Assembly: GCA_963666285.1 (NCBI GenBank)
Contig: OY762711.1
DNA from: Sedimentisphaerales bacterium
GTDB taxonomy: Bacteria > Planctomycetota > Phycisphaerae > Sedimentisphaerales > SM23-30
DNA length: 64,000 bases
Strand: one strand, 5' to 3'
Part shown: positions 36,601-61,735 of the stretch, piece after piece
Layout of the letters: the number at the start of each line of letters is the position of its first letter
How positions within the stretch are numbered: position 1 is the stretch's first letter
Notes under the pieces: generated by a model
Told to the model about the DNA's origin: nothing
Seen by the model: only the letters and a program-made list of their open reading frames with translations
The model's database searches: none
Made by a program: the position numbers and the translations under genes

Positions 36601-36629
36601 TTCGTGAAAATTCGTGTCCATTCGTGGTT
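36601..36629 (+). repeat. TTCGTG decamer tandem repeat (empty IS1111 target type)
   Basis: ttcgtgaaaa ttcgtgtcca ttcgtggtt. Confidence 0.8.
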
Positions 36630-36751: not shown

Positions 36752-38088
36752 ACTGAACTTTTGCAAAATTAAAAAATTAACGTTAAAATGTGGTATAGAC
36801 CGATAAAATTTGATAGCAGAGCACTCCGAAAACCCAGAAAGGATTTTGGTATGCCAGCTATAGTACAATACCCTACAGTAGTCCAGCAAGCTGTCGATGA
36901 ATTTGGCGATCATTTTCAAAATGAGCCTGAACGTCGTCATTTTGCTGAGTATATCACCGGTCTTATCATTGCCCGCAAGAAAAACGTCTCTGCCATCAAC
37001 AGGGAATTTGCATTTGCCTCTGATCAATCCTGTCTCAACCGGTTTCTCACCGATGTTGAATGGGACGAAGAATCGCTTAACACTGCCAGACTGGAGTGGC
37101 TGCAGAAAGACCCTAAAACCAGATATAGCGATTCTGGGGTTATTGCCCTTGATAATGTTCTGATAGACCATAGTGGTAAACATATTGAGGATGTAGGATA
37201 TTTCTGGGATCATGCAGATCAACGTAATAAAATAGCCCATGATTACCTGATAGCCAATTATGTCTGTAATTCCGGGAAACATTATCCTTTGGAGTTTTAC
37301 AGATTTGTCAAAAAAGAAGATTGTCTGGAACGGGGCATTGAATTTCAGGATCATAATATCCTTTTCCGCAATCTGGTTGACTGGACTGTAGCTAACGATA
37401 TTCCCGGTGACTTTACCTTCGATAGCTGGTTTACCCATAGCGACAACCTTAACCATATAAACCAGTATGAACGTAATTATGTTGGTGATTTGAAAACAAA
37501 TCGTAAGACTATATTTCAGGGCAAAGTAATAAAGGCTGAAGAAGTAGCCAAATCTATTGACCCTGAAATCAAAAAACTCATAACTATTGGCAAGCATCGC
37601 CAATATTACTTTACTAAAAGTATCAGGATTCCTGGTGTAGACCACAAAGTACGTATCCTGATTATCTGGCATAAAAAGAATGATATTGAACCTAAAAAGA
37701 TTCTGGTTTGCAATCGATGCAACTGGGAAGCGATTCGTATCCTGAAGGTCTATCGCTGCCGCTGGCAAGGCACAGAGTGCTTTCATCGAGACGGCAAGCA
37801 GTATTTGGGCATGGGCGACTGTCAGCTTAGAAGCGGCCTGGGTCAGACAAGACACATGTACATGGTGTTTCTGGCGTATAGCGTACTTTTGACTCAAATG
37901 CAGCAGAACCGTGTGTGTGAATGGGCACGAGAACGCCTGACGACCATAGGACAATCTTGTATGGCAGTTATGCGAGAAACTCTCAGCAATACAATCGCTT
38001 GGGTGGTTGATCAAATCGAATCCAACGGAACAAGTTTTAAACGTATTAAAGTACAATTAGCTTTACCCTAATTTTGCAAAAGTTCAGT
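36752..38088 (+). mobile_element. IS701-like insertion sequence
   Basis: Perfect 20-bp TIR actgaacttttgcaaaatta; TATT duplication (or 19-bp TIR with TTATTA). Confidence 0.92.
36851..38071 (+). CDS. DDE transposase (IS701/IS4 superfamily)
   Basis: IALDNV, FDSWF, RW..ECFHRDGKQ; ATG 36851 has an AAGGA RBS (ORF open from 36788). Confidence 0.88.
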   Translation: MPAIVQYPTVVQQAVDEFGDHFQNEPERRHFAEYITGLIIARKKNVSAINREFAFASDQSCLNRFLTDVEWDEESLNTARLEWLQKDPKTRYSDSGVIALDNVLIDHSGKHIEDVGYFWDHADQRNKIAHDYLIANYVCNSGKHYPLEFYRFVKKEDCLERGIEFQDHNILFRNLVDWTVANDIPGDFTFDSWFTHSDNLNHINQYERNYVGDLKTNRKTIFQGKVIKAEEVAKSIDPEIKKLITIGKHRQYYFTKSIRIPGVDHKVRILIIWHKKNDIEPKKILVCNRCNWEAIRILKVYRCRWQGTECFHRDGKQYLGMGDCQLRSGLGQTRHMYMVFLAYSVLLTQMQQNRVCEWARERLTTIGQSCMAVMRETLSNTIAWVVDQIESNGTSFKRIKVQLALP

Positions 38089-57591: not shown

Positions 57592-57944
57592 TTCGACCGC
57601 CTGTCATATCTGCTATTACCAAAACCGTCCCAAAACTAAGGACACCTTCTCCCAGCCATTATACCGCAACTTCTCTCCATGCCATACACCTTTTTTCCAT
57701 CCTCTTTGAGGCCAGGTATACAACAAATATACATCTTGTATAATAGGCAGGGTTGGCACAGTCACCACACAACCATTACTATTTCAAAACCGCCAATTCT
57801 CGCGTCAGCTTTAAATTTAATCGTCCGCAAATGCGGAAACCTTCTATCCATTTCATATTTTTTTCGTGAATTTTTGTGTATTTCTATGAAGCCAGAATGC
57901 AACATTAATTTTCTAATTTTATTCATTTTTGCTATAATTCCTTT

Positions 57945-58034
57945 ATCTTGCAAAGGATAGGGCTCTGCTGAGGAGCAACCCGAGCGTTGCAAGTTGTCGA
58001 GAAGCCGGGGCGGTTTTACACCGCCTCGTTTTTT
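57945..58034 (+). ncRNA. Candidate ~90-nt structured sRNA inside the IS right end
   Basis: TGcTATAAT, cttgcaa/ttgcaag stem, GC stem plus T-run terminator. Confidence 0.4.
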
Positions 58035-58094
58035 GCTTTTTGACCTTATGCGATAAACCTATTTAAAACAATTTTCGCGTAGCGAATCATTATT

Positions 58095-58260
58095 TACCTG
58101 ATTGTTTCATCTTTCTATCCGGAGTGTCCGAGGCTGTATTTTACGCCATGGTTCCATTATATATATTGCGATACGGCTTAATTTTCGTGTCAGGTTCAAA
58201 ACCCAAATGCACGACCAAGGTTCCGTATCGATTTCAATCGGGCAAAATCATAGGTAATAT
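58095..58260 (-). ncRNA. Candidate bridge/seekRNA of element 1 (limits approximate)
   Basis: Stem 58169-76/58223-30 encloses segments matching both target halves. Confidence 0.65.
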
Positions 58261-58282
58261 TTATATTTTACTTATATTGGTA

Positions 58283-59329
58283 TCAAACACTTTGCAATTC
58301 AGGCATCTGCCAACTTGTCCCATCTCGCATCATCGCCCACAATCGTACGAACAACCGTCGGGCTGTAGCTACTATCGCTATTTTTGCACGAGTTTTACTT
58401 CCCCTCTTTATTCTTTCGTATGTTTCTTTTATCCATGGATTCCAACGCAAACCCAGCCAGCAAACCTCAACAAGTAATGCTCGCAATAACCTATTGCCAT
58501 ATTTACTTATCCGCCCATGACGGTCTGTATTACCTGATTGGTACTGACGCGGTGTCATACCAATATAGCTGCCAACTTGTTTGCAATTCTTAAATCTATG
58601 TGGATCATCAATATAAGCTGCAACTGCCTCTGCCAGACGTGGGCCAACTCCGGGAACAGTCTGTAATAGTTTTACCTTTTCATCAGTACTATTTAACTCT
58701 TCCAGTTTATCTTCAACTACTTGCAAAGCGTCTGTTAATTGTTCCAGTAATATAAGCTCGCTCCATAGATTGCCTTTCCAGAGCTCATCTGGTTTAACTT
58801 TATCCATTGGCATAGCCATACTTCTTAACTGTTCCAGATTCTGCTTAGACCAGCACTTTCTGCCTGACGGCAACGAATACGCCTGGGCATTTAATAAAGA
58901 ACGAATAGTATTTTTTACCTGAGTTATCCGTTCTGTAAGGCTCTGGCGATAATTAATTAAAGATCGTTTCTCTCGAATTTCCTTTTTAGGAACATAGACA
59001 GTTGATAAATCTCCTAAAGCAGCACGCTTGGCCAGCCAAAATGCATCCTTTTTATCTGTTTTCTTCTTCAATTTTCTGCCAGACCATTCGCCGGTATTAG
59101 TATTTGCCACTTCATATTTTAATTCCAGGGTGTCAAAAAGGTCACAAATCCAGCCTATGATATCACAAGCCTCAAATACAATAAGATCAGCAGGGTGAGA
59201 TACTGCCAGGTCATGAAGCTCTTGAGGGTTAGTCTTAAACGACTTATATATAGCCTTACAGCTTTTTACCTCATAAAAACAAACTACACTCTTGAATTTT
59301 CCTAAATCAATTGACATAATAGTCTTCAT
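58283..59329 (-). CDS. IS110-family DEDD recombinase
   Basis: SIDLGK, FEAC, KTDKKDA, VPGVG, YQSG, ARRL. Confidence 0.95.
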   Translation of the reverse strand: MKTIMSIDLGKFKSVVCFYEVKSCKAIYKSFKTNPQELHDLAVSHPADLIVFEACDIIGWICDLFDTLELKYEVANTNTGEWSGRKLKKKTDKKDAFWLAKRAALGDLSTVYVPKKEIREKRSLINYRQSLTERITQVKNTIRSLLNAQAYSLPSGRKCWSKQNLEQLRSMAMPMDKVKPDELWKGNLWSELILLEQLTDALQVVEDKLEELNSTDEKVKLLQTVPGVGPRLAEAVAAYIDDPHRFKNCKQVGSYIGMTPRQYQSGNTDRHGRISKYGNRLLRALLVEVCWLGLRWNPWIKETYERIKRGSKTRAKIAIVATARRLFVRLWAMMRDGTSWQMPELQSV

Positions 59330-59638
59330 AGCCAGAATACTCCGTATAAAATTGGTTAAATATTTGAGCGTCCCTGTGACAGCTCGTGCTAAAATTATTG
59401 TGTATTATAACACAAGCCATGCTACAGGAATATTCTGGCTTTCATTGTATTTTCGTGGTTCTAAAAAAATATTAAAGTACAAGCGTTCTTATCGAGCTAT
59501 AGCTTTAGCGAAGCCTGAAATGAGTATCCTCTTTATTCTTTGCGATCTTTGCGGCCTTTGCGAGAGACAAATCCTATCAAAACCACTCTGCTTAATATCA
59601 TTCCAATCTCCAACCAAACCAGCATCGTTAAGGACATA

Positions 59639-60000: not shown

Positions 60001-60118
60001 AACGAAGCCTCTCTTCTCCCTCCTCGCTTCTAACTCTCTTCATTCGTGAAAATATGAAGAAAAGGCATCCTAAGGTATAATATATACCAAAACAAACTTT
60101 TATACGAAAGGATGCCTC

Positions 60119-61150
60119 ATGAACAACATACATTATATTGGAACAGATTTGCATAGCAACAATATTGAGCTGGCAATTCGTTACAGGCAGAAGGTAATCC
60201 AGAGATATTCTCTGCCGACATCGTTGCCTCCTGTTTTGGAGGTTATAAGCTCCATCAAAGGCAAAAAACAGATGGCAGTAGAGGAAGGCCCCATGGCAGG
60301 CTGGCTTTATCGCGGCGTATTTGGCAAAGTTGACAGGTTTGTAATCGCAGAACCTCGCCGTAACAAGCTGATAAGCTCAGAAGGCGATCATGATGATGAA
60401 ATTGATTCTGCAAAACTTGCAATGCTGCTGGAAGGAGGCCTTTTGAAGGAAGTTTATCATCCTCTAAATAGAGAGCAAGCGGTATTTAAAAAGTGGGTAA
60501 CTCTTTACCATGACAATGTTAAGGATGCAGTAAGAAGTATTAACAAAATCAGAGCCTGTTGTCGTATGGAAGCCATAAGAATACCCAGATATGTAATAAA
60601 AAACCCTGACAAACGTGACAAATGGCTTTCGGAGCTTGAATATACAGACATTGCCGAGCAATTAATGTTGCTGCTTATCGGCTACGATGCAGCTTCCTGC
60701 CAGTGTAGACTTGCCAGGCAAAAAATCATGACTCTAAGTAAATCTTATCCGGTAATTAAGCAATTTCAGGAGCTGCCCGGAGTTGGCATAATACGAGCAG
60801 TAACCTTCCTGGCATATATCGATACGCCATGGAGGTTTAAGAAAAAAAGTCAATTATGGAAATATTGCGGCATTGGACTTGAACGTACAACCAGCGGCAA
60901 AGACAAATATGGCAACTCAAAACCGGCAAAACTTAAATTGCCTTACAACTGTAATCGCACTCTTAAAAATGTAATAATTGGTGCCGCTTTAAGTGCTATC
61001 AGGCAAAAGAATAGTACATATGCCCAGGATTATGAAAGGATGATCTCAAATGGTGTAAATAGATCAAATGCTCGCCATACCGTTGCCAGGAAAATACTGA
61101 CAACTATGTGGGGGATTTGGAAAAGCAGCTTTCAGTATAATACGGATTAA
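60119..61150 (+). CDS. IS110-family DEDD recombinase
   Basis: GTDLH, VEEG, DDEID, LPGVG, TSG, ARKI. Confidence 0.93.
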   Translation: MNNIHYIGTDLHSNNIELAIRYRQKVIQRYSLPTSLPPVLEVISSIKGKKQMAVEEGPMAGWLYRGVFGKVDRFVIAEPRRNKLISSEGDHDDEIDSAKLAMLLEGGLLKEVYHPLNREQAVFKKWVTLYHDNVKDAVRSINKIRACCRMEAIRIPRYVIKNPDKRDKWLSELEYTDIAEQLMLLLIGYDAASCQCRLARQKIMTLSKSYPVIKQFQELPGVGIIRAVTFLAYIDTPWRFKKKSQLWKYCGIGLERTTSGKDKYGNSKPAKLKLPYNCNRTLKNVIIGAALSAIRQKNSTYAQDYERMISNGVNRSNARHTVARKILTTMWGIWKSSFQYNTD

Positions 61151-61204
61151 GATATCGTAATTTATACTCTTTCAAAATATTATGATTTTCTAATAGTCTT
61201 TTTG

Positions 61205-61350
61205 CATAACAGCAAAGAGTTCCGTTTCAACCACTGGACAGGCAAGAACTTGAACCCGATTCGTGAATGAACCTTTGCTTTTAGACGTGCCTCTTTTCTT
61301 TTTATGAACTGCCCAAAGGGCATGTTCCCAATAGATGGTTGGCAGCATAA
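61205..61350 (+). ncRNA. Candidate bridge/seekRNA of element 2 (limits approximate)
   Basis: Two stem-loops with segments matching the target (aaccac, attcgtg) and the donor end (atagatg). Confidence 0.65.
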
Positions 61351-61735
61351 TTTAATTTACGGCTATACACAATTTTATAAAAGAATTGACCGAACAGAAA
61401 ATTGTAGTTATTGAAAAAATCGCAAAATTACAAAAAAGATATCTATGACATGTACCTGCTGATGCAATAACTTACAACAAACGTATGGATGCCCTCAAAG
61501 TAATTCATTCGAATTAGAAATTTTTTAACTTGACTTTGAGTTCTTCATAGATGGTTTAGCTCTTAGCCCGCCCGCGCGATTCTAAACAATCTCGGCAAAG
61601 CCGGATTAATTATTACTAGTCCCGCCATGAACGACAACATACAGCTGCTGCCAGCAAGCCCGTGGAACAAAAGCCACCCAAAACATCTCAAGCCCTGTCA
61701 AGGGCGACAGAAACTATACTTCATAATGATTTTTC

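Follow-up and report, generated by a model that had tools for sequence, protein, structure and literature searches.

The stretch of DNA analysed here, 64,000 nucleotides of a Sedimentisphaerales genome and referred to below as the window, carries on its minus strand an IS1111-type insertion sequence lodged in a CACGA tandem repeat (Table 1). The element encodes a DEDD recombinase of 348 aa, inside the 330–350 aa range of the IS1111 group, and the gene is followed by some 400 nt of non-coding DNA as against 121 nt upstream, which is again a feature of that group. The genome has nine copies, 98.75–100% identical, and the differences listed among the eight that were aligned leave the guide region untouched. 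In sequencing runs X1 and X2, which may represent the source sample, the element is covered at about 8–9 times the depth of its flanks. A scan of a genome collection for the element returned two distant loci only.

Table 1. Features of the element and of the site it occupies (window coordinates)
Feature	Position	Strand	Remarks
IS1111-type element	57883..59450	(-)	1568 bp between two AA core copies, 57881-57882 and 59451-59452; core placed from homologue geometry
Interrupted CACGA repeat target, right half	57861..57880	(-)	sequence; junction table
Interrupted target, core and left half	59451..59460	(-)	sequence; junction table
Right sub-terminal inverted repeat, 13 nt	57886..57898	(-)	sequence; 10-bp perfect part; then 3-nt terminal extension 57883-57885
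Left sub-terminal inverted repeat, 14 nt, one extra A	59432..59445	(-)	sequence; 5-nt extension and 2-nt core, 7 nt together
-35 hexamer TTGCAT, circle-junction promoter (predicted)	57897..57902	(-)	17-nt spacing in reconstructed junctions
-10 hexamer TACAAT, circle-junction promoter (predicted)	59444..59449	(-)	reconstructed junctions
DEDD recombinase/transposase, 348 aa	58283..59329	(-)	PF01548 and PF02371; NF033542
Target-binding hairpin, predicted seek/bridge RNA	58169..58230	(-)	outer stem, 4-bp closing helix, 11 x 11 loop, apical stem-loop 58204-58192
Right target guide	58205..58215	(-)	complements target top strand over core and right flank; covariation
Left target guide including core	58183..58190	(-)	covariation
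Probable right donor guide	58159..58163	(-)	4/5 complementary to left end; by eye, from alignment position and change with left end
Left donor guide	58112..58118	(-)	equals right end plus core; follows both in homologues
Left-end hairpin	59330..59440	(-)	inverted repeat 59427-59440 pairs with Shine-Dalgarno region 59330-59343, 14 nt
Structured module, ~130 nt	57941..58067	(-)	separate from conserved guide RNA; between RNA and right end

The transposase has the broad characteristics of the IS110 family and scores 213.5 bits against the NCBIfam model NF033542, for which the cut-off is 140. Residues D8, E53, D92, D95 and S265-G266 are invariant in an alignment of 27 transposase homologues, as are G257, P260, S265 and G266 of the GL-P----S(T)G motif, in which M replaces L. 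The nearest named protein, from a Sedimentisphaerales MAG, is 73% identical, and the plasmid matches are unnamed IS110 transposases at 42%. The only matches in the PDB are 8wt6 (IS621, E 1.6e-20) and 9t56 (ISCro4, E 1.2e-22). The sub-terminal inverted repeats, 13 and 14 nt long with 10 bp perfect, fall in with the approximately 11–13 bp of IS1111 elements, and the terminal extensions are 7 nt on the left and 3 nt on the right if the boundary is derived from homologues, or 6 and 3 with the boundary of the preliminary description; both combinations belong to the group. Every IS1111 feature that can be read from sequence is thus present, and the element is assigned to the IS1111 group on these features rather than by placement among ISfinder references.

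Two contig observations concern the element itself. A joint at low depth in runs X1 and X2 connects 58205 to 59284, skipping 58206–59283, and run X3 has a loose end at 58179; these represent either a deleted relative or chimeras. The contigs of four sequencing runs contained no circle joint, contigs being an assembly product from which rare forms drop out.

Where exactly the element ends matters both for the promoter that circularization would create and for the form of the empty site. We place the boundary from homologues because the junction here falls in an A/T run. Where a homologue has an AG or GG core, CATRG and one more base are followed by this 2-bp core and then by a left extension of 5 nt (6 nt in five close relatives), and in those whose cores are unambiguous 8 nt separate CATRG from ATG (9 nt in the same number of close relatives). 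Both left guides, target and donor, terminate with the AA core in the homologous position, and where the core changes to AA or GG the left guides and the junction change with it. We infer from this geometry that the core is AA, that the junction spacer is N17, and that the units of the empty site are spaced at 9 bp. Among 38 distinct junctions assembled in silico, a 17-nt spacing gave the top score in 37, two of which score poorly. The hexamers TTGCAT and TACAAT of the circle-junction promoter are where the preliminary description put them, on the minus strand, and its 16-nt spacer gives way to one of 17 nt by homologue geometry; in the same manner its empty site holds, by the homologue-derived boundary, one T too many. 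Right junctions with an extra A also occur in three other genomes (G145, G330 and G110), and at one homologous locus (L136) the neighbouring empty sites carry the extra A as well, so it is probably derived from the target. The cores at the two junctions can be unequal: the left junction then usually has the guide-encoded core and the right has target bases (L024, L097, L136), and one case (L099) fits neither pattern. None of 30 relatives provided an empty orthologous allele of the window locus.

Downstream of the gene lies the region from which a guide RNA would be made. The motifs listed in the preliminary description are all there: the stem 58169-76/58223-30, attttcgtg at 58181 and again at 59449, aaatgcacga at 58205, and tttctat at 58112. 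The stem that encloses the target guides is also sound by calculation, the hairpin folding with z = -4.0 and none of 200 shuffles folding equally well; the fold of the whole 183-nt region is not significant (z = -1.3). The internal loop does contain both guides as described; its true size is 11 x 11 nt, an additional helix of 4 bp (58219-16/58180-77) closing it. When the non-coding region was shuffled 3000 times with its dinucleotides preserved, 25 shuffles yielded the 9-nt match and 47 the 10-nt match with one mismatch, but none yielded both. The identity of tttctat with the element end is weak as a 7-nt match by itself (285 of 3000 shuffles), and its support comes from covariation among homologues.

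That covariation supports the guides. From 143 homologous loci, 58 had both ends recognizable by motif, 48 of these had the RNA anchor, and 31 segments resulted; removal of gapped or short-flank rows left 22 distinct guide pairs and 34 sites. Guide-target covariation had been proposed as a check, and in this set each of the two target guides varies together with the flank of its own insertion. The left guide matches its flank at a mean of 4.56 of 6 positions with the core excluded (2.0 when permuted), the right guide matches its cognate flank at 5.72 of 8 in the better of two registers (3.14 when permuted), and in neither case did any of 5000 permutations reach the observed value, although these counts overstate the significance because the homologues are related. 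Fits are poor, at two or fewer of 8 positions of the right guide, in 3 of the 34 sites (L033, L095, L116). The left donor guide changes with the right end, ATAGAAA here becoming ATAGGAG in genome G145 and ATAGAGG at loci L114 and L115, with exceptions that include L013 and L129. A relative in run X5 differs, among the matches listed, at 58185, 58186, 58208 and 58214, all inside guides. Read 5' to 3', the RNA has first the right and left target guides and then the right and left donor guides, the right donor guide being placed by eye and the other three by covariation; on the minus strand 58215-58205 thus precedes 58190-58183, the IS1111 order, in which the complement of the top strand comes first (PMC11187229). 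The guides, in short, are real as far as sequence comparison can take them, and the RNA itself is predicted. The right flanks of L013 and L121 resemble a T-arm, and these homologues have presumably inserted in tRNA genes; ARAGORN found no tRNA in the interrupted loci L013, L121 and L004.

All nine copies occupy the same register of the CACGA tandem repeat, at one position and in one orientation, which is the target specificity expected of IS1111 elements. The left junction (CCACGA, the AA core, left end) is identical in all nine, and the right junctions read TTCACG in five copies, ATTCACG in two, TACACA in the window, and AACACG in a copy within a CRISPR array. Insertion sites elsewhere that ignored the guides would have spoken against guidance. 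Instead, besides sharing the left junction, the right flanks of all nine fit the right guide at 5–6 of 8 positions, the window and CRISPR copies at only 5. The genome has 92 CCACGAAA sites, 83 of them empty: 76 empty sites match the right guide at no more than 4 of 7 positions, one at 5 and six at 6, and the nine filled sites match at 5–6 of 7. Given the N17 boundary, seven of eight sites with 9-bp register are filled versus two of seven with 10-bp register, a weak difference (Fisher p = 0.04) between copies that may not be independent. One longer intergenic repeat subfamily holds seven of the copies, partly clustered at 714–718 and 909–918 kb, and clustered copies may not represent separate insertions. 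A 443-aa frame lies between two repeat units, adjoining an element copy (G000:C1:911204-912535); we take its start to resemble that of a group II intron reverse transcriptase.

The decamer repeat at 36601, said to be colinear with the empty site, does belong to the same repeat family, but this variant, in which GGACACG comes after an AT core, is used by none of the nine copies. Three sites of the 36601 type are filled by a third IS110-family element, 34% identical and present in four copies (G000:C1:1589832, 2394698, 5026811 and 5746294), and five such sites are empty. Element 2 of the window (~60050–61553, 27% identical, three copies) has a TG core, the same end geometry, and matching guides, and is inserted, in opposite orientation, in the final unit of this repeat family; its further copies are at G000:C1:3804259 and 5397370. 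One repeat family is thus common to three IS110-family lineages. Also near the 36601 repeat, about 160 bp downstream, begins a DDE transposase gene of the DDE_5 family (36788–38071).

The CRISPR copy (G000:C1:3248899-3250496) splits spacer 10 of an array that has 13 spacers and lies behind cas12a, cas4, cas1 and cas2. The locus as a whole is of type V-A (G000:C1:3248295-3250718; L026, L127), with a Cas12a of 1290 aa and 14 repeats. Spacer 10 consists of TTCGTG repeated with a period of 9 and lacks the flanks that usually accompany the repeat, so the insertion was evidently drawn by sequence alone. In two genomes of the class, G142 and G163, which have 65 and 58 exact copies, respectively, of the 16-nt repeat form carried by the spacer, this form belongs to a dense family with a 9-bp period; when 29 sites were read from 30 of the 123 matches, it continued at 9 bp in all ten cases that continued. 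Rebuilt without the element, spacer 10 has 29 nt versus 26–28 nt for the other 12, a length that counts against the boundary reading. Its first 24 nt are unaltered by the insertion, and the spacer may therefore still work as a guide. We considered whether the insertion had rescued the host from self-targeting and rejected the idea: nothing in the genome matches spacer 10 (3 mismatches in 20 nt; 5 over the 30-nt rebuilt form). In viral contigs, a search for its protospacer gave one 19-nt match that does not extend, and in 401 genomes of the class a search for its source gave four near matches, all of them chromosomal repeats in G142 and G163. In spacer 2, the first 20 nt match a host contig at G000:C1:5307714 with one mismatch, behind CTTC rather than TTTV. 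A literature search found nothing on IS110 elements and self-targeting Cas12a spacers. IS110-family insertions within CRISPR arrays are known from Thermoanaerobacter, where they split the arrays (PMC4852346); here the insertion is in a spacer and is explained by guide match, whereas the text available for Thermoanaerobacter offers no explanation based on guides.

These observations bear on three other ways of reading the locus. The nine copies might have spread together with their flanking repeat by segmental duplication instead of by targeted insertion, as the concentration of seven in one subfamily and the clusters at 714–718 and 909–918 kb would allow. Beyond the target, however, the window and CRISPR-spacer copies have unrelated flanks, and filled members of the subfamily have empty ones beside them, which makes duplication very unlikely as the general cause. 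We give still less credence to the view that the matches to the target simply reflect the two sides of a stem in the RNA (UCGUG/CACGA), protein or DNA structure doing the targeting in place of RNA. It has in its favor that the minimum-energy fold pairs the guides, which must be forced apart at a predicted 8.3 kcal/mol, and that the specificity of ISPpu10 is increased by a stem-loop in its target (bioRxiv 10.64898/2026.03.19.712850). Yet pairing between the guides is not conserved, only 41% of cells being paired in 27 homologue rows, and in eight homologues whose targets are not repeats the loop opens at 0.8–2.2 kcal/mol, with both segments following the flanks. RNA guidance into the CACGA repeat remains much the better account.

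The third alternative concerns detail rather than kind. With the boundary of the preliminary description, the donor would have one A fewer, the spacer would be 16 nt, and the target would have the usual 10-bp spacing. CACGAA tandems in this genome are indeed mostly at 10 bp (35, versus 6 at 9 bp); in the main repeat subfamily, five of the six best empty sites, those matching at 6 of 7 positions, have 10-bp spacing; and 6/3 extensions occur occasionally in IS1111 elements (PMC11187229). Against it stand the geometry of the homologues, the junction scores and the AA core that terminates both left guides, as well as the 9-bp period of the spacer's repeat form. It would also demand 11-bp targets for two copies, and no empty 11-bp target exists. 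We regard that boundary as unlikely, and keep to the homologue-derived one.

A direct repeat as target makes the two target guides complementary to one another, and in the minimum-energy fold five bases of each pair together. The cost of opening the loop, predicted for RNA free of protein, is the 8.3 kcal/mol given above for this element and 8.2 in three close relatives; apart from the eight homologues with non-repeat targets, the others are intermediate or high. The consensus fold was computed on 27 homologue rows, three near-duplicates and the mis-anchored L095 having been taken out. In the free RNA, then, the loop is predicted to be closed. We found no literature on bridge RNAs with a self-complementary target-binding loop, nor on IS1111 elements aimed at tandem repeats in Planctomycetota. 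Perhaps, and we offer this tentatively, being on balance doubtful of it, a clade of Planctomycetota IS1111 elements has specialized on short, purine-rich direct tandem repeats, its complementary guides forming a gate that closes by itself, at about 8 kcal/mol, and gives way only to protein or to a matching target, with a preference for 9 over 10 bp, and with a second module that moves among IS1111, IS110, IS256, IS30 and IS21 elements.

The left end of the element forms a hairpin of its own. In the 34 of 37 left ends that have GGAG near the start, the inverted repeat pairs better on average with its cognate partner than with swapped ones (means -20.3 and -14.3 kcal/mol; 0/300 permutations). 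The hairpin probably hides the ribosome-binding site, and should then damp transposase synthesis. Its apical part includes TATAAT (59404–59409), which resembles a -10 hexamer; such hexamers occur in 25 of 37 homologous left ends, where 5.9 are expected, with no conserved -35. Hypothetically, a second promoter lies there, and in a transcript begun behind the hexamer the GGAG is still predicted to be partly paired. An internal inverted repeat has reportedly been described for IS4321-type elements. In IS621, weak read-through is enough for excision (PMC13626964).

Between the guide RNA and the right end sits the structured module, missing in most homologues and present in two (L028, L110). A profile search of the genome placed it at 11 positions: in the nine copies and directly behind both IS256-family genes (G000:C1:4656444-4656584 and 155262-155402). 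The module also occurs at loci L140–L156 and L165–L181. With a covariance model, 10 of 150 further genomes in the phylum proved to carry it. Among outside loci, 25 were scanned for neighbouring genes, and by raw count a transposase or integrase was present within 11 of them; the neighbours include IS30, IS256, IS21, IS110, DDE_Tnp_1, rve and tyrosine integrase, upstream or downstream and on either strand. Across 13 sequences, 11 of the 16 pairs predicted for the 3' hairpin show compensatory changes. A GGGG..CCCC hairpin often lies 5' of the module, and loci L029–L033 have this hairpin without it. Rfam gave nothing at gathering thresholds in the window, and one match with E = 3.3 in 57850–58300. 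The module was not found in plasmids, viral contigs had no exact 31-mer of it, and literature searches found no clearly related paper on it or on GxxExxY repeats. Most likely, it is a passenger or a shared site acquired by several IS families.

Taken as a whole, we are confident that the element is an autonomous, recently active member of the IS110 family, IS1111 group, guided by RNA into a CACGA tandem repeat; that a recombinase is aimed by RNA at a host repeat, as first suggested, is borne out on comparative evidence by the guide match at nine of nine sites and by retargeted homologues whose guides have changed. By analogy with its family, the recombinase, with the RNA from 58230 to about 58100, would excise the element as a circle. 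Joining of the ends would build TTGCAT-N17-TACAAT, which may be active in transcribing gene and RNA, while the hairpin at the left end would mask the ribosome-binding site and hold transposase synthesis down. The RNA, its guide loop predicted to stay closed until protein or DNA opens it, would direct recombination at the AA core and so bring the element into the final unit pair of the repeat, with a 9-bp unit spacing preferred and 10 bp tolerated. Recognition being by sequence, a CRISPR spacer that carries the repeat would be hit as well.

The closest described systems are ISEc11, ISPa11 and ISKpn4 (Siddiquee et al. 2024, PMC11187229), which likewise have sub-terminal inverted repeats, 7/3 extensions, a junction promoter, a long non-coding region downstream of a 330–350 aa DEDD transposase, and a top-strand guide 5' of the bottom-strand guide. 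ISPa11, too, aims at a host repeat, REP. Compared by description, the present element differs from these in its short direct tandem-repeat target, complementary guides, and extra 130-nt module. For IS1111 elements in general, the RNA has been located to the right end and its donor guides to a multi-loop (PMC11208160). IS621 (Durrant et al. 2024, PMC11208160; 8wt6) and ISCro4 (9t56) share the DEDD and catalytic serine chemistry, a 2-bp core, target and donor guides, and insertion into host repeats (PMC11208160), but in IS621 the RNA is encoded upstream, the core is CT, the guide order is reversed, and the inverted repeats are 2–3 bp (PMC11208160). ISPpu10 (bioRxiv 10.64898/2026.03.19.712850) and ISPpu9 also target repeats. 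Repeat targeting is known already, from ISPa11 and IS621; the original reading is right, and the kind of system has been described before. This clade and its targets may be included already in the tables that supplement PMC11208160 and PMC11187229.

The known mechanism is unchanged by these findings. What they add is a natural programmable IS1111 recombinase with four readable guides and a core other than CT, whose relatives are retargeted by few guide changes, and which is suited to tool mining. The module spread across IS families is an unexplained lead. The copy in the CRISPR spacer indicates that about 15 bp of sequence is enough without the usual flanks, and the self-complementary guides pose a testable question of design for bridge RNAs against direct repeats.
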